Positions 4,272 to 57,715 of a DNA stretch of 64,000 nt are shown piece by piece (position 1 is the first letter of the stretch; the number at the start of each line of letters is the position of its first letter). The notes beneath the pieces are model-generated. The model saw nothing but the letters and a program-made list of their open reading frames with translations, was not told where the DNA came from and did not search any database. A program made the translations under genes and the position numbers. Source of the DNA: Candidatus Omnitrophota bacterium (lineage in GTDB: Bacteria > Omnitrophota > Gorgyraeia > JAHIPI01); NCBI GenBank assembly GCA_016783745.1, contig JADHVZ010000004.1, positions 3,544 through 67,543 of the forward strand, in the 5' to 3' direction.

Positions 4272-5465
4272 ATGAGTCGCAAAAAGGTTTCGGTTTTAAC
4301 ATTTTGTTTATTTGTCATATTATTTTTTATACTTACAGGCGCGTATATAAATAGCACCGATTTCTTCCGGAGGATAGCAGCGGATCATTGTAAGGCGAGC
4401 GGCCGGTATCCCCAAGCTATAGCCTTTTATAAAAAGATCATCAGGAAAGACAGTGTAAAAAAACATCTTATAGGCAGCGATTTTGCGAGTGTTAATTTCA
4501 ATTTAGGCTATTTGTATGCGCAAATAGGTCTCACAAATTCAGCGATCGAATCTTATGCCAGCGGAAGCGCAAGATCCATCGATATTAAAACCGAGGACTA
4601 TTATAGCGGTGACCTGGAAAAGGATAGATTGATAGCGGTTGGATTGCTGGAGGCCGGCAACTGGGATGCCGCTATAGATGAGTTCCAAAAGATGAAGCGG
4701 CGCTATCCCCGATCAGCCGATATCGATTCGTATCTTCGTACTGCAGATTCCTTAAAGCAGGAGGGTATTGCCTCCGGCAGAAGGGATATCTTTTTCGATA
4801 TAGGAGACGCTTATATCAGGAACCGATTATTTGATGAGGCCAGGCCCTTTTTTACCAGGAGAATATTGGATTATGGTGTCCACCCCCTGGAGGTATTGAG
4901 GCATCTCCGTAGAGCATATTACGCGGATCCGGATATCAAGCAGAAGGTCTGGGGGGATGAGATCTATGTCACACTGGAGGACTTTGAAAGGATCAAACCG
5001 CATTTAAAGAGATGGATCACCCAGGCAAGGCCGAGAACTAATGATCACCATATATCTGATGAAGTCGCTTTCAAAGGGGCTCGCTCGGAATTTTTGGACA
5101 TCCTTTATTCCAAAAAAGATTACGATTACTGGATAGTAGATGTGGATATTCCATTAGATGGCGATCTGCCGTTAGGACTGCGGGTGTTCGTAAAGAGTAA
5201 AGAGCGTTTCATAGGCCATCTTAAAGAGAACATCATCTATTCAGGAGGGAAAGGAAGCAGTGTCATAGAGCGGCCTGACGTCAAAATAAATGCCGGTGAC
5301 GGCTGGGAGATGCAAAGGACAGTAGGCCTCTATGAAAAGGCACAAGCCATAGGAGAGGAAATCGGCTGCGGCGGTTGTACGATCAAGATGGATAAGGTCA
5401 TTATAGATACTGCGGGAGGTTCCAATCAATTTTATGTCGATGATATTGAGTTATTCATTGAATAA
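4272..5465 (+). CDS. hypothetical membrane-anchored protein with TPR-like helical N-terminal region
   Basis: N-terminal hydrophobic anchor 'VSVLTFCLFVILFFILTGAY'. Helical repeat-like stretches follow ('AIAFYKKIIRKD...LGYLYAQIGLTNSAIESY'). No catalytic motif was recognised. Confidence 0.3.
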   Translation: MSRKKVSVLTFCLFVILFFILTGAYINSTDFFRRIAADHCKASGRYPQAIAFYKKIIRKDSVKKHLIGSDFASVNFNLGYLYAQIGLTNSAIESYASGSARSIDIKTEDYYSGDLEKDRLIAVGLLEAGNWDAAIDEFQKMKRRYPRSADIDSYLRTADSLKQEGIASGRRDIFFDIGDAYIRNRLFDEARPFFTRRILDYGVHPLEVLRHLRRAYYADPDIKQKVWGDEIYVTLEDFERIKPHLKRWITQARPRTNDHHISDEVAFKGARSEFLDILYSKKDYDYWIVDVDIPLDGDLPLGLRVFVKSKERFIGHLKENIIYSGGKGSSVIERPDVKINAGDGWEMQRTVGLYEKAQAIGEEIGCGGCTIKMDKVIIDTAGGSNQFYVDDIELFIE

Positions 5466-24219: not shown

Positions 24220-24350
24220 GGTTTACGGTTTTCGGTTCACGGTTTACGGAAAATCCAATGGGATTTAAAAAACCGTACACCGTAAACCGTACACCGTAAA
24301 CCGTACACCGTAAACCGTACACCGTAAACCGTACACCGTAAACCGTAAGT
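24220..24350. repeat. heptad-periodic repeat block: 30-bp element GGTTTACGGTTTTCGGTTCACGGTTTACGG (24220-24249), small hairpin AAATCCaatgGGATTT (24252-24267), then 14-bp tandem repeat CCGTACACCGTAAA x about 5.5 (24272-24350)
   Basis: Read directly from the sequence. The 30-mer is the reverse complement of the tandem-repeat consensus (CCGTAAACC...), so the two can pair. It ends 12 nt before ATG 24363. Confidence 0.85.
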
Positions 24351-24362
24351 GAGATATTCAAA

Positions 24363-25286
24363 ATGAACAACATAACAATCGGCATCATGCAGGGTCGGCT
24401 GATGCCTCCGGTCAACGGTCAGCTGCAGGCATTTCCGGGAAAGGGGTGGGAGAAGGAATTTTCCCGGGCCGGCCTGTGCGGGTTGGACACGATCGAATTC
24501 ATTTTTGACACGGATGAAGAATATAATCCGCTTCACGATGACGAAAAAATCGAACGGATCCGGGAATTATCGAGGGATCATAGGATCAAGGTATCCTCCG
24601 TATGCGCCGATTACTTTATGAGGAGAGGCTTCCTGCGGGTGGCTGACGAGGAGCGTAAGAAAAATGTGGAAATGCTCCGGAAGCTGACTTTAAGATGCGA
24701 TAAAATCGGTATCCGGTATATCGTAATACCGTTTGTGGATGAATCCGAAATAAAAACGGCTGAAGAGCTGTATATAGTACGGGACGCATTGATCGAAGCG
24801 CTTGACGGCACAAAAGGGTGCGATGTCTATTATGCGCTTGAGATGTCGCTTCCGGCCGAGAGAATCGTCCCGTTTCTGAAGGAGGCCGGCCACCCTCGGT
24901 TGAAGATCAATTATGATACGGGAAACTCAACGGCCCTCGGTTATGATCTAGCCTCCGAAATAGAGCAGCTGGCTCCGTGGATCGTGGATGTGCATATTAA
25001 GGACAGGAAGGTGGGCGGAGGAAGTTGTATCCTCGGAGAAGGCGATACTGACTTTGACGGTGCGTTTAGGGCGTTGGCCGGGATCGGCTTCCGCGGCCCG
25101 TATATCATCCAGGCGCAGCGCACCGGAAACGAGGCCAAACTCGCAAAGCGCTATCTGGGGTTCGTGAAAAATATGATCTCTCGCTCGCGCAGAGCATACA
25201 GCTCTCATTCTGTCTCCAAGGGGAGTTTCCCCTTAACCGTAAACCGTGAACCGAAAACCGATAACCGAAAACCGAGAACCGAATAA
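24363..25286 (+). CDS. sugar phosphate isomerase/epimerase (xylose-isomerase-like TIM barrel)
   Basis: 'GLDTIEFIFDTDEE...YIVIPFVDESE...DVHIKDRK' with metal-binding E/D/H spacing is typical of the AP-endonuclease-2/xylose-isomerase-like TIM-barrel family. The C-terminal 20 aa are encoded by the downstream heptad repeat. Confidence 0.6.
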   Translation: MNNITIGIMQGRLMPPVNGQLQAFPGKGWEKEFSRAGLCGLDTIEFIFDTDEEYNPLHDDEKIERIRELSRDHRIKVSSVCADYFMRRGFLRVADEERKKNVEMLRKLTLRCDKIGIRYIVIPFVDESEIKTAEELYIVRDALIEALDGTKGCDVYYALEMSLPAERIVPFLKEAGHPRLKINYDTGNSTALGYDLASEIEQLAPWIVDVHIKDRKVGGGSCILGEGDTDFDGAFRALAGIGFRGPYIIQAQRTGNEAKLAKRYLGFVKNMISRSRRAYSSHSVSKGSFPLTVNREPKTDNRKPRTE

Positions 25287-48128: not shown

Positions 48129-49057
48129 TGGAGACAGCGCCTGCGAATATAGGCCGACTCAAAAGTAAGTTCGACGGAAGCGTATCCCTTTTATGCTGGG
48201 CATATAACGAAGAGGCCTCTGTCGGCGATTTTCTCGAAAGGGCGTCGGCCTTGATGGAAGAGGCGGTGGAAGACTATGAGATCGTGATGATAGATGACGG
48301 GAGCACTGACAAGACTTATGAGATCGCCAGAAGTTTTCAGGAAAAAGACCCCCGCTTGAAAATATTCAGAAATGAGAAAAATTCCAATGTGGGTGTTTCG
48401 ATCCCAAAAGCTATAAAGAACGCGTCAAAAGAGTATCTATTCTGGCAGACCGTTGATTGGTGCTACGATATCTCAAATTTGAGGATCTTTCTCGAATATT
48501 TAAAGTCATATGATATTGTTCAGGGGGTAAGGAGAAGGCCGGTAAAAGTAAAGGGTAGATTGATAAAGCCCATAGCGGCGGTTATAAGACTCTTTGGCAT
48601 AAAACATCTGACCAGGCGCTCGGATACGCTGATGAAAGCGGTGATCTCAGTGATCAACTATAGCCTTATAAGAGGTCTTTTTGGGTTGCCCGTATCCGAT
48701 TTTCAAAACGTTACTTTTTACCAGACAAAAATGGTCCGATCTTTGAGATCGGAGGCGAAGAGCGCTTTCACCAATCCGGAGCTCTTGATAAAATCTTATT
48801 GGAAAGGGGCATCCATAAAAGAAGTCCCCATAAGTTTTATACCGAGGACAAAAGGGAAGCCTAAGGGCACGGCTTTGAGATCTGTGGCAAATGCCGTTAA
48901 CGACATACTTAAGCTGCACTTTAGATGGGTGATACTGGGCAGAAGGGATCTCATCCGGCCGGGTAAAGTGCACAGGCTCGATCCGTCTGAGTGGAAAGAA
49001 GGATATGAAGGTATTACTGATAATCCCGCCTACAGACTTGAAGAAGTCTTACGGTAA
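48125..49057 (+). CDS. GT2 polyprenyl-phosphate sugar synthase (DPM1/ArnC/GtrB-like)
   Basis: 'SLLCWAYNEEASVGDFLERA...YEIVMIDDGSTDKTYEIAR' gives the GT2 DxD context in a compact 310-aa DPM1-like architecture. Confidence 0.7.
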   Translation: MMETAPANIGRLKSKFDGSVSLLCWAYNEEASVGDFLERASALMEEAVEDYEIVMIDDGSTDKTYEIARSFQEKDPRLKIFRNEKNSNVGVSIPKAIKNASKEYLFWQTVDWCYDISNLRIFLEYLKSYDIVQGVRRRPVKVKGRLIKPIAAVIRLFGIKHLTRRSDTLMKAVISVINYSLIRGLFGLPVSDFQNVTFYQTKMVRSLRSEAKSAFTNPELLIKSYWKGASIKEVPISFIPRTKGKPKGTALRSVANAVNDILKLHFRWVILGRRDLIRPGKVHRLDPSEWKEGYEGITDNPAYRLEEVLR

Positions 49058-50435
49058 GCTGAGAAAATTTTTAAATCCGCAGCCGTCGATAGGTATCGCT
49101 TATATAGCGGCGGTTTTAAGAAAAAACGGCTATGATGTAAAAATAACCGATGCCTATGTCGATGAAAACGGCATAGAAGAGATCATGGATGCGGTAAAGG
49201 AGTATTCGCCCGGTGTCATCGGCATAAGCGTTTTGACTGCATCTGCGGATGTGGTTTACGAAATATCAAAAACCATACGCGCGAGATTTCCTTATATTAA
49301 AATCGTAATGGGGAATATTCATGCGTCTCTATTTTCAGACGAGATATTATCAAAGGGCTATGCCGATTTCATAGTGCATCGCGAGGGAGAGCTGACTATG
49401 CTTGAGATCCTTCGAATGCTGGAGACCGGCGGAGATGCCGAAGATATAAAAGGCGTGTCCTTTAAAAAAGAAGGCACCGCCGTACATAATCCTATGAGGC
49501 CGTTTATAGCCGAACTCGATGATCTTCCTTATCCGGCGTGGGACTTGTTTCCGCTGGATAAATATTCTACCGACCCAAGGTCCGAGCTGAAAAGGGGCGC
49601 GGTTCCGATGGAATTACTTGTGACCAGAGGTTGCCCGTTTCAGTGCACATTCTGCTCCTCAAGAGAAGATAGAAGCCTTGGCAGTAGATATAGGATGCGG
49701 GATCCTAAAACGGTAGTGAACGAAATGGTCTATATGTACGAGAGGTACGGCAAGGATACCTTCGCATTTATGGATTTGGCATTTCCTCTTGTAAAGGAGC
49801 ACGCATACGGGTTGTGCGATGAGATAATTAATAGGGGATATGGAGAGAGGTTTATTTGGCATACCGAATGCCGCGTTACACCTCTTGACCAGGAACTGCT
49901 TTTTCATATGAGGAAAGCGGGTTGTGTGAGGTTATACCTCGGTATCGAATCCGGCAATGACGAAACCCTTAAGGCACTTAAGAAAAACTGCACGACAGAA
50001 GATGCTAGAAATGCCGTGAAAATGGCCCATGGGGCCGGGATGGAAGTCGACGGGATGTTTATGATAGGCCTGCCGGGCGAGACCGAGGAAATGATAGAGA
50101 AGACCGTTGATTTTGCCATAGAGCTGGATGTAAGATATGCGATCTTTAATCTATTCGTCCCTTAGCCCGGGTGCGAGCTCTGGGATACGTTGCGGGGAGA
50201 AGGCAAAGTTAAATATACGAACTGGAGCGACTTTACCTCGTATCCGACGTATTCTGGCGGCGAGCCGATATATGTCCCTGACGGCATTACCAAAGACAGG
50301 CTTATGGAATTGCAGTCCCGTGCCATGAAAAGGTTTTATGTAAGGCCGAGGTTTATTTTTGATGAGTTCAAAAGGTTTAAAATAGATAAGACGGCGCATT
50401 ATTTGGAAGGGTTGAAAGGTATCCTTTTATGGTGA
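49005..50435 (+). CDS. B12-binding (class B) radical SAM enzyme, paralog 3, interrupted by an in-frame TAG at 50163-50165
   Basis: 'KVLLIIPPTD...IGIAYIAAVLRKNGYDVKI' is the B12 domain, and 'TRGCPFQCTFCSS' is CxxxCxxC. ORF-track pieces 49005-50165 and 50190-50435 are in the same frame, separated only by TAG. The downstream piece 'PGCELWDTL...' continues the conserved 'P-x-PG(T/C)ELW' C-terminal motif. Confidence 0.7.
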
Positions 50436-52561: not shown

Positions 52562-53780
52562 AGCGCAGAATGTATTGAAGAAAATGCCGGGTGTTTCCGC
52601 CGCCGGAGATATATTCCGGAAAAAAGTCTTACACTGGCTTCTTTCCATGCAGACGGGAGCCACTCAATTCCGGATGAACAACATGGCCGATAGTACAATA
52701 TTCACCTCCTGCTTCGCTTTGTTTATTTTTGACATTCTGGGTGAGACGAAAAAGTGGCTGCGGGAAGAAAAAGACTTATGGGTCAGATATATAACTTCCT
52801 ACCAGGATAAAGAGACGGGTTATTTCATACCGGATAATTATAAGGGCGACCTGGATACAAAAACCGTACAGCAGCTCACATGTTTCTGCCTCAGCGCGCT
52901 TGAGATCCTGAAAGCGTCCCCTAATTACAAACTCTCTTTTCTTAAAAAGTGGCCGCAGCCAAGCAATATTTACGACTATTTGAACAGAATCGGGTGCTTT
53001 CAAGGAAAGCCTATGACAGGTAATATGGCCATGTTTCTGGCTATTTTCCTGACATATCAGTATGAGAAATGCGGGGACGAATTAGCGCTCAATTTTATCG
53101 ATACATGGTTTCACTGGCACGAAAGGACGCAGAACAAAAGGACCGGTTTCTGGGGAAAAGGGGTAAGCAATAAATATTATTTCGGATTTCAAAACGCTTT
53201 TCACCAGCTTCTTATTTATGACTACTGGAACAGGCCTATCCCTAATCACGAACGCATCATAGACTCTGTGCTTTTACTGCAGGATGAGGAAGGCTATTTC
53301 GCGCCGACTCCCGGTGGCTGGGCCTGTTATGATTATGACGCTATCCACATTCTGTCTCACGCGTACCGTACCATCGATCATAGAAAAAATAATATAGAGA
53401 ACAGCCTTAAAAAGGTATTTCACGCGATAATAGCCAAGCAAAACAGTGACGGCGGCTTTTGCCAGTCAAGCGAGAAGCCTTCAAGTATGACAGATATATT
53501 CAATAATAGAGATTTCTTTATCCGTAACGACGCGCCCTATCTCGCCTATTACAGGATGAGAAACGCCTTAAGCATATTGCTTAAAGGCAATAAGACCATT
53601 ATGACGAAATGGACAGTGAAGGGTAGGTTGTGGAACGAAAGCAATCTCTGGGATACATGGTTGTACTGTCTTTGCCTTGCAGAGATCGCGAATTCCATCG
53701 AGATCGAGAAGCATCTCGATCTGAAGAATACAAATTTTCATAAAATGGCAGGCATAGGATATTTTAACCCGAGGAAATAG
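52554..53780 (+). CDS. alpha/alpha-toroid repeat protein (prenyltransferase/terpene-cyclase-like fold), function unknown
   Basis: Repeated 'aromatic-x-aromatic...(Q/K)xxDGGF/W' units, e.g. 'KQNSDGGFCQS', 'YQDKETGYF', 'LLQDEEGYFAP', resemble QW/prenyltransferase repeats. Confidence 0.3.
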   Translation: MNKAQNVLKKMPGVSAAGDIFRKKVLHWLLSMQTGATQFRMNNMADSTIFTSCFALFIFDILGETKKWLREEKDLWVRYITSYQDKETGYFIPDNYKGDLDTKTVQQLTCFCLSALEILKASPNYKLSFLKKWPQPSNIYDYLNRIGCFQGKPMTGNMAMFLAIFLTYQYEKCGDELALNFIDTWFHWHERTQNKRTGFWGKGVSNKYYFGFQNAFHQLLIYDYWNRPIPNHERIIDSVLLLQDEEGYFAPTPGGWACYDYDAIHILSHAYRTIDHRKNNIENSLKKVFHAIIAKQNSDGGFCQSSEKPSSMTDIFNNRDFFIRNDAPYLAYYRMRNALSILLKGNKTIMTKWTVKGRLWNESNLWDTWLYCLCLAEIANSIEIEKHLDLKNTNFHKMAGIGYFNPRK

Positions 53781-53782
53781 AT

Positions 53783-54916
53783 ATGATTAAACCGCATGGC
53801 GGCAGATTGATAAACCGATACGTTAAAACGGGATCCGTGGCGCCCTTGCGCGGCTTACCGCGTGTACGTTTATCAGAGGTGGCTCTTTCCGACCTTTATA
53901 ATATCGCTGACGGCACATTCAGCCCGTTGACCGGTTTTATGAGGGGCCCCGAGCTCGGCGATGTTATTAACAGGAATAAAGTGAACGGGGTGCCGTGGAC
54001 TATTCCGGTCGTGCTGGACGCGGATAAGGCGGCCGTAAATGGCCTTAAGAAGGGAAAGTCTATCGCGCTTGAAGGCGATGACGGCAAAGTCGTGGCCAGG
54101 ATGGAATTAGAGGACATATATACCCATAAAAAAGACGAATACGCCCTGAAGGTGTTTGGCACCAGGGACCGCAGACATCCCGGAGTGAATCTGGCGTATG
54201 AGATGAAGGAGTATCTTTTGGGCGGAAAGGTGCATGTTTTCAGGAAGCAGGATAACGTAAAGAATTATCTTTCACCGCTTGAGGTCCGTAAGATAATCAC
54301 GGATAAAGGTTACAAGTCTGTTGCGGGCTTCCAGACAAGAAATGTGCTTCACCGCGCCCATGAATACCTGCAGCGCTGCGCGCTGGAACATGTGGACGGA
54401 CTTTTTCTGCAGCCGATCATAGGCTGGAAAAAGAAAGGTGATTTTACCGCGGATGCCATAATCAAGGCATACCGTGAATTTATATCTGACTATTATCCGG
54501 GAAACAGGGTGGTATTCGGGACTTTAAAAACAGCGATGCGTTACGCGGGCCCAAAGGAAGCCGTTTTTCATGCTATAATCAGAAAGAATTTCGGATGCAC
54601 TCATTTTATCGTGGGAAGGGACCATGCCGGTGTGGGCGGCTATTACGGAAAATATGAAGCGCACGATATATTTGATAAGATCGGGGATGTCGGTATCAAT
54701 ATTTTAAAGTTCAAGGAACCGCTTTATTGCAAAAAATGTGATCTGGTCGTAACAGAGAAGACTTGCGGCCACGGCCCCGAATATCACCAGGAGATAAGCG
54801 GTACTTTAGTCAGGAAGATAATCAAGAACGGGCATCAGCCGAAGCATAAGATCTTCAGGCCGGAAGTCTATAAGATATTACTTAAAGAGTTTAAGAGGAA
54901 ACATTTGTTTTATTAA
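53783..54916 (+). CDS. sat: sulfate adenylyltransferase (ATP sulfurylase)
   Basis: 'GFQTRNVLHRAHEYL' is the QTRN/HRAH motif, and 'HFIVGRDHAGVGGYYG' is the GRDHAG motif. Confidence 0.9.
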   Translation: MIKPHGGRLINRYVKTGSVAPLRGLPRVRLSEVALSDLYNIADGTFSPLTGFMRGPELGDVINRNKVNGVPWTIPVVLDADKAAVNGLKKGKSIALEGDDGKVVARMELEDIYTHKKDEYALKVFGTRDRRHPGVNLAYEMKEYLLGGKVHVFRKQDNVKNYLSPLEVRKIITDKGYKSVAGFQTRNVLHRAHEYLQRCALEHVDGLFLQPIIGWKKKGDFTADAIIKAYREFISDYYPGNRVVFGTLKTAMRYAGPKEAVFHAIIRKNFGCTHFIVGRDHAGVGGYYGKYEAHDIFDKIGDVGINILKFKEPLYCKKCDLVVTEKTCGHGPEYHQEISGTLVRKIIKNGHQPKHKIFRPEVYKILLKEFKRKHLFY

Positions 54917-55115
54917 TCATGATAATTAAATCACAAATAACAAGCATCAAATCACAAACAAATAACAATCACCAAATTCCAAATCTCAAACAAGCTGTTT
55001 TGAATTTTGAATTTGATATTTTGAATTTGTTTGTTATTTGTAATTTGTGATTTGTAATTTATTCGTTATTTGTTTGTAATTTGTAATTTCATGCTAATTT
55101 GAAATATACATCGAT
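54917..55115. repeat. about 200-bp intergenic inverted array of degenerate heptamer repeats: left arm A/C-rich (AAATCAC/AAATAAC units), right arm complementary T/G-rich (TTTGTGA/TTTGTAA units), centred near 54995-55000
   Basis: Read directly. Left: aaatcacaaataacaagcatcaaatcacaaacaaataacaatcaccaaattccaaatctcaaacaagc. Right: gttttgaattttgaatttgatattttgaatttgtttgttatttgtaatttgtgatttgtaatttattcgttatttgtttgtaatttgtaatttc. Confidence 0.8.
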
Positions 55116-55133
55116 TTGTTCAAGGGAGAATTT

Positions 55134-56561
55134 ATGAATAAAACTAAAATAGTATGCACAATAGGCCCAAGTTCATGCGAGGTGCCTGTACTTAAGAAAC
55201 TGATCAACGCGGGGATGAACGTTGTCCGGTTGAACGGGTCGCATAACAGCCTGGACTGGCATGAAGCCGTGATCAAGCGCATAAGATCACTGGATAAGAA
55301 CATCTCAATACTTCTTGACCTGCCCGGCAGGAAGATACGGACAAAGGCCTGGGGAAGGTCATTTCACTTCGCTAAGGGGCAGAGGCTTGTATTCACATCG
55401 AGTCAGGACTACAGAGGTGAGGGTAAAATACCCGTAAATCACAGTGAGATCCACCGCGCGCTAAAAAAATCGGATATGATCCTGGCGGAAGACGGAACGC
55501 TGAAATTCAAAGTCGAATCAATCGATGGCCGGGATATACTGTGCAGGGCGCTTTCCACCTGCACGCTGGAAAGCGGGAAGGGCCTGAATATCCCCTCAGT
55601 AAAGCTCGGCGCGGCGGTAGCCACGGAAACAGATAAAAAGCTGATAAGATTTGCCATAAATAAGGGCGTGGATTGGGTCGGTTTATCCTATGTCGAAAAC
55701 GGCGAACAGGTGAGAAAGGTCAAAAGACTACTGGCGGGCAGCGGCATAGGCGTTGTATCGAAAATAGAGAACCAGGCAGCTCTTGAGAATCTCGAGAGCA
55801 TTATAGAGGAATCAGCCGCCCTGATGGTGGACAGAGGAGACCTGGGGGCTGAGATCGGGATCGAGCGCATAAGTTTAGCGCAAAAAGGTGTTATATCCAG
55901 AGGCAATGAATACGGTAAACCTGTAATAGTAGCCACGGAGATGCTTCATTCAATGGTCCATAATCCTCATCCCACAAAGGCTGAGGTCATGGATATAAGC
56001 AATTCCATTCTCGACGGCGCTTCGGCGATCATGCTGTCGGCCGAGACGGCTGTAGGCAAGAACCCCGTAGCCGCCGTGAAGATCATGAGGAGTGTCGCCA
56101 ATGAAGTCGAGAAAGGCCGTTCTATTTACGATAAGGCCATGGTTTCTTTAAAGCGCACTTCAATACCCAACGCCATCGGAAGATCTATCTATGAGATATG
56201 TAAAGAGATGCCCATAGATAAAGTAGTATGCATCACATTTTCGGGTTATGCGGCAAGCATGGTCAGCCGCTACCGCATAGAACCTCCTATTATAGCCGTA
56301 AGCGATAAGCTGGAGAAAACCAGGGCGTTTAATCTGTTGTGGGGGGTGGAAGGGGTACCGCTTAAGATACGATTTTACCGGGACAGGTATGACCATATAC
56401 TGGAGAGCGCGGAAAAACTCTGGAGGGCCGGAAGACTTTCCGGTTCCGACCAGGTCATATTCACCGCAGTATTATTCCCGAAAAAAGGCAATAAGATGAA
56501 TTTTCTCGCGATACATAAAATCAGCGATTTGGAGAGGGTGTTCAAGTGGAAGAAAAAATAG
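55134..56561 (+). CDS. pyruvate kinase family protein (paralog embedded in the glycan locus; start placed at ATG 55134 behind GGGAG)
   Basis: 'KIVCTIGPSS...GMNVVRLNGSHNS...LLDLPGRKIRT...MVDRGDLGAEIGIE...KPVIVATEMLHSMVHNPHPTKAEVMDISNSILDGASAIMLSAETAVGKNPVAAVKIM' are collinear with the canonical PK motifs. Confidence 0.85.
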   Translation: MNKTKIVCTIGPSSCEVPVLKKLINAGMNVVRLNGSHNSLDWHEAVIKRIRSLDKNISILLDLPGRKIRTKAWGRSFHFAKGQRLVFTSSQDYRGEGKIPVNHSEIHRALKKSDMILAEDGTLKFKVESIDGRDILCRALSTCTLESGKGLNIPSVKLGAAVATETDKKLIRFAINKGVDWVGLSYVENGEQVRKVKRLLAGSGIGVVSKIENQAALENLESIIEESAALMVDRGDLGAEIGIERISLAQKGVISRGNEYGKPVIVATEMLHSMVHNPHPTKAEVMDISNSILDGASAIMLSAETAVGKNPVAAVKIMRSVANEVEKGRSIYDKAMVSLKRTSIPNAIGRSIYEICKEMPIDKVVCITFSGYAASMVSRYRIEPPIIAVSDKLEKTRAFNLLWGVEGVPLKIRFYRDRYDHILESAEKLWRAGRLSGSDQVIFTAVLFPKKGNKMNFLAIHKISDLERVFKWKKK

Positions 56562-57715
56562 TCCTTATTTCAAAAGATATTTTAAGAGCAGACTACCTGC
56601 CCGCATACGGTAACAAATACTGGAAGACCCCCAACATCGACGAATTAGCCTGCAAAGGTACCATATTCAGAAGGCATTATGTCTCTTCGCCTTCTACGGG
56701 TATGGGATTCACGTGCATGTTTTCCGGGCTGAATGCCTATGAACTCGAAAGAAAGAGCTTTACCGTGGTCGACGAATTCAAACAGGCCGCCACGCTTTTT
56801 GACTTATTAGTAGAAAAAGGGTATGCCTGCCATGTCTTATGGGATGAATTTTGGTGGGAAAAAATAGGATACCCCTATTCCAAATGTTATGGCCCGAGCA
56901 CCGTCTTTCATAATATAAAGATCGGGCAGATGGTGGGGCCTCATAAGATCGATAAGAGTGAGGTTGCCGAGGGCCAGGGAGAAAAAACAATAGAAAAAAT
57001 CACCGCGGAAGTAGATTCGATAAAGGACGACAAGCTTTTTCTTTGGATCCATTTGCCGCATGTGGTATACGGCCGGACCGCATACGGTTCGGATATAGAC
57101 TTGTTTGACAGATTAGTCGGAGATATCAGGAACAGGTTTTCGGACGGATCTATCTATATTACGGCCGATCACGGCCATATGAATTGCGAGAAGGGGCTGC
57201 CCATATACGGATTCCACGTATATGAGGGAGCGGTCCGGATCCCTTTGATCACGCCGCGAATAGACAATATGGGGGAAGTAAGATTTCCCACGAGTAATAT
57301 ACAATTGAAGGATATAATCTTGAATAAAAAGCTGGCCAGGCCGGATTATGTTTTCTGCGATACGCAGTATTACGCTCAGCCGCACAGAAAATTAGCGGTT
57401 ATAAAAGATAACTATAAGTACATTTACAACAAGTGGGACGGGACAGAAGAGCTGTATGATTGCGAATGGGACAAAAATGAAGATGTAAACCTGCTGAAAA
57501 AGAAGTGGTTTGACCGTGACAGGTTCAGATGGTATCACACAGCGGAGATTTATTTTTACCCCTATTATGAAAAGGCTTACGAATATTACCGCCTTCTCAA
57601 GGCAAAGAAAGATGAGATCTGGAGAAAGAGCGCTTTTTTGGAAGAGGCTATAAATCTTCTCAAGTATCAGGCGAAAGCGTTCTTAAAAAAAATAGAAAAT
57701 ATAAAGAAACGATAA
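56546..57715 (+). CDS. alkaline-phosphatase-superfamily phosphodiesterase/nucleotide pyrophosphatase-like enzyme (NPP type, Thr nucleophile); not a sulfatase
   Basis: 'ISKDILRADYLPAYGN...TPNIDELACKGTIF...SSPSTGMGF' parallels the NPP 'DGFRADYL...TPNLDRL...FPTKTFPNH' pattern, and 'ITADHGHMN' is the distal metal-binding DHG. It lacks the sulfatase C/S-x-P-x-R motif. Confidence 0.55.
   Translation: MEEKIVLISKDILRADYLPAYGNKYWKTPNIDELACKGTIFRRHYVSSPSTGMGFTCMFSGLNAYELERKSFTVVDEFKQAATLFDLLVEKGYACHVLWDEFWWEKIGYPYSKCYGPSTVFHNIKIGQMVGPHKIDKSEVAEGQGEKTIEKITAEVDSIKDDKLFLWIHLPHVVYGRTAYGSDIDLFDRLVGDIRNRFSDGSIYITADHGHMNCEKGLPIYGFHVYEGAVRIPLITPRIDNMGEVRFPTSNIQLKDIILNKKLARPDYVFCDTQYYAQPHRKLAVIKDNYKYIYNKWDGTEELYDCEWDKNEDVNLLKKKWFDRDRFRWYHTAEIYFYPYYEKAYEYYRLLKAKKDEIWRKSAFLEEAINLLKYQAKAFLKKIENIKKR

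Follow-up and report, generated by a model that had tools for sequence, protein, structure and literature searches.

A heptad-built palindrome between sat and a pyruvate kinase paralog in an Omnitrophota genome, probably one copy of a dispersed repeat

The 64-kb window analyzed here (the whole stretch of DNA under study) is one long plus-strand gene array with very few gaps. It comes from a metagenome-assembled genome (MAG) of Candidatus Omnitrophica, as identified by protein P0001, which is 100% identical to the pyruvate kinase (PK) paralog encoded at 55134 to 56561 on the plus strand (Pfam PK and PK_C). The upstream neighbor of this paralog is sat, which encodes an ATP sulfurylase (53783 to 54916, plus strand; Pfam PUA_2 and ATP-sulfurylase, E 6e-85). 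The end of the sat open reading frame (ORF) at 54916 and the PK ATG at 55134 are separated by a gap of 217 nucleotides (nt), and this gap contains the quasi-palindromic array of 7-nt units that is the subject of this work. The sat stop codon, TAA, lies 10 nt ahead of the first heptad, and PK starts 44 nt past the heptad element. The PK start region (55122 to 55136, plus strand) consists of a Shine-Dalgarno-like AAGGGAG (55122 to 55128) and the ATG and corresponds to a gene call at 4624 to 6051 of contig L001. A preliminary description of this DNA had called the gap the only long one of the distal locus, and this holds, because the other apparent gap, 50166 to 50428, continues a radical-SAM frame past an in-frame TAG.

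The whole element is 176 nt long (54918 to 55093, no strand assigned) and was delimited by a DNA fold, by RNA folds, and by an inverted-repeat search; its span is that of the predicted hairpin. An A/C-rich heptamer array followed by a T/G-rich complement was thus confirmed as a quasi-palindrome, although the arms, first put at about 90 bp each, proved unequal at about 66 and about 95 nt. The A/C-rich arm (54928 to 54992, plus strand) was defined by a family alignment, by an nhmmer match at 54928 to 54989 (E 3.6e-10), and by base composition (A 56%, C 26%, and G 2% over 54927 to 54992). It is built of four heptads (AAATCAC, AAATAAC, AAGCATC, and AAATCAC), the tetramer AAAC, four further heptads (AAATAAC, AATCACC, AAATTCC, and AAATCTC), and a second AAAC. 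Within it, at 54955 to 54979 on the plus strand, lies the 25-mer CAAACAAATAACAATCACCAAATTC, which fits the pattern CAAACAAATMACAAKCACCAAATTC and is the core of the family described below. The symmetry center, found in the sequence and by the inverted-repeat search, is AGC at 54993 to 54995 (no strand assigned), within AAGCTG; this copy lacks the separate loop or GC-rich tip hairpin that some family members have. The part of the T/G-rich arm that is shared with the family (54996 to 55061, plus strand) was recognized because its reverse complement aligns to a hidden Markov model (HMM) of the left arm. It mirrors the block plan, with TTTTGAA-type units, GTTT, and then TTTGTNA units, and the T/G-rich arm as a whole (54996 to 55090) is 61% T, 16% G, and 2% C. 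The extra heptads ATTCGTTATTTGTTTGTAATTTGTAATTT at 55062 to 55090 (plus strand) have no counterpart in other family members and derive from an internal, local duplication of 29 to 32 nt, which makes the right arm some 30 nt longer than the left and which Tandem Repeats Finder (TRF) reports as rows of period 29 and 32 (55006 to 55073 and 55044 to 55101).

The regularity of the element was apparent by several measures. TRF found periods of 7, 11, and 14 nt in the gap, with period-7 rows at 54998 to 55028 (4.4 copies) and 55030 to 55089 (9.4 copies) and period 14 on the left arm; a periodicity scan peaked at 55025 to 55089. The element contains at least three 7-nt units head to tail, as defines a heptameric simple sequence repeat (SSR). 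An inverted-repeat search gave arms of 66 nt that are 74% complementary and 3 nt apart, and the arm complementarity score was 57, compared with 24 +/- 4 in composition shuffles. When arms of 26 nt or more were sought within 300 nt, the 64-kb window gave just two inverted repeats, this one and a second element at 24.2 kb. The sequence is identical in the window and in the independent assemblies L001 and L006, and in L005 up to 55081, these assemblies being derived from different samples.

Both strands of the gap were folded and compared with dinucleotide shuffles, which they surpassed. The plus-strand RNA reached -46.8 kcal/mol (z = -2.4), the minus-strand RNA reached -48 kcal/mol (z = -3.9), and single-stranded DNA reached -32.5 kcal/mol (z = -5.3) in a hairpin that spans 54918 to 55093. 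The long A/C:U/G hairpin that had been expected from the inverted heptamer arrays is therefore predicted on either strand. We also examined whether this pairing shows signs of selection. At the variable columns of the alignment, the identity between a left arm and a reverse-complemented right arm was 0.39 within elements and 0.44 between elements. Native constructs of left and right arms folded with a mean of -35.8 kcal/mol versus -39.3 kcal/mol for chimeric arm pairs, and the window's own right arm ranked last among nine partners of its left arm. The complementarity of the window element, taken as a test for a mirrored unit order between the arms, was no better than that of unit-order shuffles (P = 0.08). 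Two mismatches become wobble pairs on the plus-strand RNA and five on the minus-strand RNA, so that neither strand is singled out. The family alignment and fold tests also gave no compensatory changes that keep the arms paired, as would be seen in REPINs. The arms are not co-adapted for pairing; they pair because two opposed arrays share a core of four bases in seven, and the hairpin is incidental rather than tuned pair by pair. This result speaks against selection of the hairpin for its base pairing.

What the preliminary description had missed is that the element belongs to a family of dispersed repeats that share a fixed block architecture and occur at numerous unrelated loci, in more than a single phylum. 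In a heptamer survey, one genome per GTDB species was scanned with TTTGTRATTTGTRATTTGTRA, which returned at least 119 loci from many phyla, two Omnitrophota MAGs among them (830 kb), and several of these loci resembled the window element beyond the units searched for. For hand-picked loci, conservation of unit order gave P values of 0.001 to 0.008 for three pairs, a biased choice that was superseded by an independent scan with the 25-mer common to the window and locus L119 (CAAACAAATMACAAKCACCAAATTC). This query spans irregular units (AAAC, AAATMAC, AAKCACC, and AAATTC). In JGI metagenomes it matched 15 contigs exactly, representing about 11 distinct loci, and it is present in the GTDB locus L119 as well; a 24-mer from the element center, AAATCTCAAACAAGCTGTTTTGAA, had no match in the metagenome scan. 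When aligned, ten loci fell into perfect heptad register with the same 4 + 4 block plan, and in all ten the periodic region begins exactly four heptads before AAAC. The common plan is (AAANNNC)x4, AAAC, (AAANNNC)x4, AAAC, a loop of variable length, and a mirror-image T/G-rich arm, in which the CAAA/TTTG cores are invariant and the three bases in between vary. Reverse-complemented right arms align to the left-arm HMM with the block plan intact. The window element has this arm plan, the CAAACAAATMACAAKCACCAAATTC core, and the inverted array, along with the nhmmer match given above.

In every complete family member the A/C-rich arm comes first and the U-rich arm second, and in L031, L119, and L141 a GC-richer, perfect tip stem precedes the U-rich arm. 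A search with the left-arm HMM recovered copies outside the training set, two per contig in L031, L076, L145, and L152. The closest copy, in L150, matches the window element at 85% identity across 138 nt. It is flanked by kdtA-like and hisI-like genes and adjoins AACCGAG-type arrays similar to those of the window at 25.2 kb; the L150 organism is probably related to that of the window, but the locus is clearly different. Other copies also have unrelated, ordinary genes as neighbors (GT2-GT2, ahcY-metK, murA-mreB, and MaoC-ferredoxin). No transposase, RAYT, or small DNA-binding gene was found near the copies examined. The contig L141 belongs to Bacteroidales, judging by its AdoHcyase, which has 92% identity to a protein from a Bacteroidales MAG, and the window belongs to Omnitrophota; on these sequence assignments the family therefore spans at least two phyla. 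Two incomplete forms were seen as well. In L145 (JACKQG010136072.1) both copies of the 25-mer lie in a 122-nt tandem repeat whose units each combine an A/C-rich arm with unique sequence and have no T/G-rich partner, and L144 and L146 carry an A/C arm alone.

The history of the element was traced through relatives of its flanking genes. The closest PK relatives are 59 to 65% identical, and their contigs retain the order sat to PK. The gap between the two genes is 20 nt in L134 and L135 and 14 nt in L136 and L137, and in L133 the order is sat-TauE-PK with gaps of 5 nt and 35 nt. The short junctions in these relatives therefore indicate that the 176-nt element was acquired in this lineage, within a tightly coupled module whose ancestral sat-PK junction, judged from these sequences, was 14 to 20 nt. 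The element does not represent a locus-specific regulatory structure. The preliminary description would have counted itself refuted by a lack of conserved structure here in related genomes together with uniform, unprocessed read-through; the genomic half of this was observed, since the relatives have no structure at this junction. The sat gene followed by the PK paralog, and often then by a sulfatase-family protein, recurs in L133 to L137 as in the window (53783 to 57715), and the sat-PK module is kept in glycan clusters of distant MAGs labeled Planctomycetota, Saganbacteria, and others.

Gain and loss are also seen elsewhere. The ahcY-metK gap holds the element in both L141 and L153 (92% protein identity), with different numbers of heptads, and has no element in L155 (79% identity), where a GC-rich, terminator-like hairpin is found instead (L155:2926-3168). 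In L153, which is a Bacteroidales relative, the loop of the heptad element contains another, nested palindromic element about 170 nt long (L153:2926-3364). All assemblies of this genome have the sat-PK element in identical form, and copy-number variation was observed in the 24.2-kb element and between L141 and L153. The arms change by heptad slippage, as judged from the right-arm duplication, the heptad numbers in L141 and L153, and a 14-nt unit difference at 24.2 kb. The Logan contigs L002, L003, L004, and L007 consistently break inside the element, as a repeat would lead one to expect, either ending at ...GAATTTGT or beginning 115 nt before PK. L005, a low-coverage ENA contig, follows the window through sat and up to 55081 in the right arm and then continues, at its positions 1861 to 2174, into unrelated sequence that encodes a membrane-protein-like N terminus. 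Neither the window nor its extensions contain this tail, and a protein search found no homologue. The L005 junction reflects an assembly chimera at the repeat or else, in a strain variant, a recombination breakpoint within the array.

The window contains two further heptad arrays. The second inverted element (24220 to 24348, no strand assigned) consists of four GGTTTAC-like units, a small palindromic tip, AAATCCaatgGGATTT, and a perfect array of (AAACCGTACACCGT)x5.6. Its RNA fold is -52.8 kcal/mol (z = -2.8), its T/G-rich arm comes first, opposite to the order in the sat-PK element, and its units differ; as had been described, the two elements have the 7-nt period in common but not the sequence. 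The perfect array has one 14-nt unit fewer in L131, another assembly of the same genome, and slippage is therefore active. The third array, (AACCGNN)x7 at 25235 to 25283 on the plus strand, encodes the last 16 codons of a xylose-isomerase-like TIM-barrel ORF (24363 to 25286) and has stop codons in all three frames. Its positions 25237 to 25260 (24 nt) are an exact inverted copy of 24226 to 24249, so that perfect inverted repeats flank this single gene. Separately, the radical-SAM (B12-binding) ORF at 49005 to 50432 has its in-frame TAG at 50163 to 50165, followed by 88 open codons that resemble a normal C terminus. The TAG is present in other assemblies too (gene call in L002) and could reflect a pseudogene, read-through, or recoding.

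The 830 kb of the survey placed these arrays in a wider setting, for which all counts are among the matches listed. Period-7 arrays numbered 301, compared with 22 for period 6 and 87 for period 8, and neighboring arrays formed 48 inverted complements and 30 direct pairs. By crude ORF calls, 12 of 28 inverted pairs lay between convergent genes, against a background of 17% (P = 0.001); such pairs were rare between divergent genes and often abutted stop codons. Arm order was about even, with the A-rich arm first in 14 pairs and the T-rich arm first in 13. Runs of A3 or T3 occurred in 43% of other heptamer units versus 27.5% in the background, a real but modest excess that largely reflects AT-rich intergenic DNA.

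We compared the family with known repeats. Repetitive extragenic palindromic (REP) sequences and the bacterial interspersed mosaic elements (BIMEs) that contain them give rise, when transcribed, to mRNA hairpins that influence mRNA stability and read-through. The REP/BIME/REPIN sequences of Proteobacteria resemble the present family in being short, non-coding, imperfect palindromes that are dispersed in many copies, lack target-site duplications, and are sited after stop codons, within operons, or between convergent genes. They differ in that REP units are 20 to 40 nt long with a conserved GTAG-type head, are not heptad periodic, and are linked to a RAYT transposase gene, and in that REPIN arms keep their pairing, whereas the arms here are at least 64 nt long, heptad periodic, and not co-adapted. 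In the window element no 20- to 40-nt unit with a GTAG-like head was found, although the inverted doublet architecture is present, and no RAYT gene (IS200/IS605-like tyrosine transposase) was found in the window or beside the copies examined, with about 100 kb of this genome available. The Correia elements of Neisseria are co-transcribed with their neighbors, and their terminal-repeat hairpins are cut by RNase III; foldback elements typically have arms made of short subrepeats. Like the present family, foldback elements and MITEs (miniature inverted-repeat transposable elements), including Correia elements, are non-autonomous palindromic insertions of 100 to 200 nt in intergenic DNA, but defined terminal inverted repeats, duplications of the target site, and related autonomous insertion sequences characterize MITEs, and none of these were found here. 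As to several near-identical copies at unrelated loci, which are a MITE trait, the analysis gave the 85% identical L150 copy, from a related organism, and contigs with two copies in other genomes, against only one copy in about 100 kb here.

Heptamer arrays as such are also known, and among published repeats they stand nearest to the present family, the inverted pairs of Xanthomonas included. In Xanthomonas, GGGAATC heptamer SSRs form 70 to 75 convergent inverted pairs per genome, and heptamers are overrepresented in bacteria (Rehm et al. 2015, PMC4692102). TAACTGA arrays occur in Beggiatoaceae, cyanobacteria, and Bacteroidetes (MacGregor 2015, PMC4679880), and TTTTGAA arrays influence recF and recO expression in Nostoc (bioRxiv 10.1101/2022.06.06.494920). 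Literature on such arrays in Omnitrophota was searched for, and none was found. The arrays of Xanthomonas, Nostoc, Calothrix (STRR sequences), and Beggiatoaceae are, like those described here, intergenic tandems of 7-nt units, present many times per genome and often as closely opposed arrays; they keep their position while their length varies between relatives, and they are transcribed. They are composed of other units, however, and have been described as plain one-unit repeats of variable length, whereas the present family has a fixed block plan, mixed units in a partly conserved order, a discrete boundary, and copies across phyla.

A further comparison is with the arrays bound by omega, the ribbon-helix-helix ParB protein of plasmid pSM19035. 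These too are made of contiguous 7-bp units, direct and inverted, with one omega dimer per heptad and four heptads as the functional minimum (PMC9499535). The omega unit AATCACA is identical to the AAATCAC heptads of this element and of many retrieved arrays. However, omega sites are contiguous WATCACW units in plasmid promoter regions beside the omega gene, whereas the present element is chromosomal, follows a stop codon, and has only 3 of about 20 heptads that fit, these being non-contiguous; nowhere does it have four contiguous WATCACW heptads. Pfam scans detected no ribbon-helix-helix gene, either among 10 window proteins near the two heptad elements or among 10 that flank five further family copies. 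Three Acidobacteriota MAG loci of 57 to 71% GC (L049, L074, and L108) carry AT-rich inverted (TTTGTGA)n/(TCACAAA)n arrays whose unit is identical to the WATCACW heptad bound by pSM19035 omega/ParB.

On this evidence we favor, with modest confidence, the reading that the sat-PK gap holds one copy of a dispersed, multicopy, non-coding palindromic repeat that is REP/BIME-like or foldback-MITE-like. Lying within a co-directional and nearly gapless plus-strand cluster, the element is probably transcribed in a polycistronic mRNA. The transcript would fold into a long, imperfect A/C:U/G hairpin that starts 10 nt past the sat stop codon, and the tight translational coupling of sat and PK found in relatives would be lost. 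By analogy with REP/BIME and Correia elements, the effect of such a hairpin on the mRNA would most likely be modest, as a barrier to 3' exonucleases, a partial attenuator, or an RNase III site. Several points weigh against this reading. As regards a mechanism of spread, no transposase or RAYT gene was found near the copies examined, and only one family copy was found in the approximately 100 kb of this genome, so that the multicopy state is demonstrated for other genomes rather than for this one. A flanking 11-nt direct repeat, TCATG[A/C]TAATT (one mismatch), arises in 6% of flank shuffles and is partly palindrome; it does not qualify as a target-site duplication, and by eye no flanking repeats were found in other family members. 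Low-complexity A/C-rich heptads inflate similarity, and the seed loci were selected by pattern, so that some of the family statistics are biased. MAG contigs may carry a wrong phylum label, and L141 is the only one that was checked independently. Finally, a REP-like effect on mRNA is something that we infer purely by analogy.

The explanations that compete with a dispersed repeat differ mainly in what they take to be selected. An unlikely one is that the family comprises terminator-like modules, with the window copy a cis-acting RNA structure selected as an operon-internal terminator or attenuator, an RNase III site, or a 3'-end stabilizer. The position of the element just past a stop codon would suit such a role, as would the enrichment of inverted heptad pairs between convergent genes, often at stop codons, and the arm order of complete members, by which a transcript of either strand ends U rich. 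The GC-richer tip stems of L031, L119, and L141 and the terminator-like hairpin that L155 has where L141 and L153 carry the element point the same way. However, the window copy has no tip hairpin, and its stem is AU rich and imperfect, in place of the short GC-rich stem-loop and U run of an intrinsic terminator. A promoter and terminator scan of 53500 to 56500 found neither a sigma-70-like promoter nor an intrinsic terminator in the 54917 to 55133 gap, and the terminator or attenuator role proposed in the preliminary description is therefore unconfirmed. The same is true of its proposal of a small structured RNA: a permissive search of the gap against Rfam 15 gave only sub-threshold microRNA-model noise, and 12 family loci had no matches at gathering score. 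The other two roles that it had proposed, a processing site and a DNA-binding-protein array, were not confirmed either. Native folds were no better than chimeric ones and showed no excess complementarity at variable positions, and a strong terminator would split a module that relatives co-transcribe over a junction of 14 to 20 nt. Arm orders of 14 versus 13 among the inverted heptamer pairs listed, together with the opposite order at 24.2 kb, also speak against this role, and a uniform U-tail terminator model for all inverted heptamer pairs was rejected because both orders are equally common.

If the arrays rather than their pairing are what is conserved, each CAAA-core heptad could be the unit for a protein that coats double-stranded DNA at a 7-bp period, with the arms forming a twofold symmetric site, or, in another form of the same idea, the U/G-rich heptads could bind a cold-shock-type protein on RNA. 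We regard this as rather unlikely. It would account for the invariant 4-nt core, strict 7-nt period, free spacer bases, and blocks of four heptads, and for arms conserved as arrays and not as complements. Precedents exist in omega, which binds 7 to 10 contiguous 7-bp repeats, direct or inverted, and needs at least four (PMC9499535), in CspB binding of heptamer repeats as cited in PMC4679880, and in heptamer arrays that modulate promoter output in Nostoc (bioRxiv 10.1101/2022.06.06.494920), and the element has three exact WATCACW heptads, at 54929, 54950, and 55046. These omega-type heptads are non-contiguous, however, and most units differ from WATCACW; no small DNA-binding gene was present among the Pfam-scanned proteins near the window elements or five other copies, and the copies follow stop codons between co-directional or convergent genes rather than occupying divergent promoter regions. 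A purely local SSR, produced by slippage and template switching across a small palindrome with no common ancestry with elements elsewhere, is improbable. Heptamers are indeed the dominant tandem-repeat class in the genomes sampled, their overrepresentation and inverted pairing in Xanthomonas are published (PMC4692102), slippage is active (as described above), and low-complexity units favor chance similarity, with several pairwise unit-order tests not significant. Local origin does not readily explain an exact 25-mer over irregular units in 15 metagenome contigs, a block plan and boundary identical in 10 of 10 aligned loci, or an 85% identical full-length copy at the unrelated L150 locus. That the gap encodes a small protein is hardly credible: a 44-codon ORF runs from the ATG at 54920 through both arms, and a 37-amino-acid product was gene called at the contig ends of L002 and L003, but no ribosome-binding site precedes it, its sequence is of low complexity, its frame is open only because A/C-rich units have no stop codons, and L150, the closest copy, has stops in every frame. 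We give equally little credence to a hairpin chimera of assembly. Logan contigs terminate within the element, and the ENA contig L005 departs from the window in the right arm, but independently assembled samples give the same full sequence, and arms that are 74% complementary and unequal in length are unlike artefactual perfect palindromes. Two other candidates were rejected: the Bacteroidetes promoter motif TAnnTTTG, for which the spacing in TAATTTG units does not fit, and an integron attC site, for which the core sites RYYYAAC and GTTRRRY are not present.

A broader conjecture, which is doubtful, is that CAAA-heptad palindromes constitute an unrecognized, cross-phylum class of element whose arms consist of units recognized by a protein with a 7-nt period of nucleic acid reading. 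The reader could be a ribbon-helix-helix-like DNA coat or a cold-shock/OB-fold protein on the U/G-rich RNA arm. If this were true, the elements would not be passive repeats but a genome-wide layer of regulation or chromosome organization, or would form the termini of a novel type of mobile element, and the long-noted excess of heptamer repeats in bacteria would gain a concrete and testable cause.

Heptamer arrays, inverted pairs, and REP- or MITE-like palindromes are already known, but this block architecture and its spread across phyla were not found in the literature and libraries searched and seem undescribed. An excess of heptameric repeats in bacteria has been noted since 1990 (STRR) and 2007, and to our knowledge it has no accepted explanation. 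The dispersed palindromic family means that at least some heptamer arrays are not free-running microsatellites but copies of a discrete element with a fixed plan and sharp boundaries. An old and vague observation thereby becomes a defined and testable object, whose copies can be counted and whose gain and loss can be traced. In practical terms, the element breaks short-read assemblies inside gene clusters, and long hairpins inserted in the operons of uncultured bacteria affect operon prediction and the heterologous expression of their clusters.

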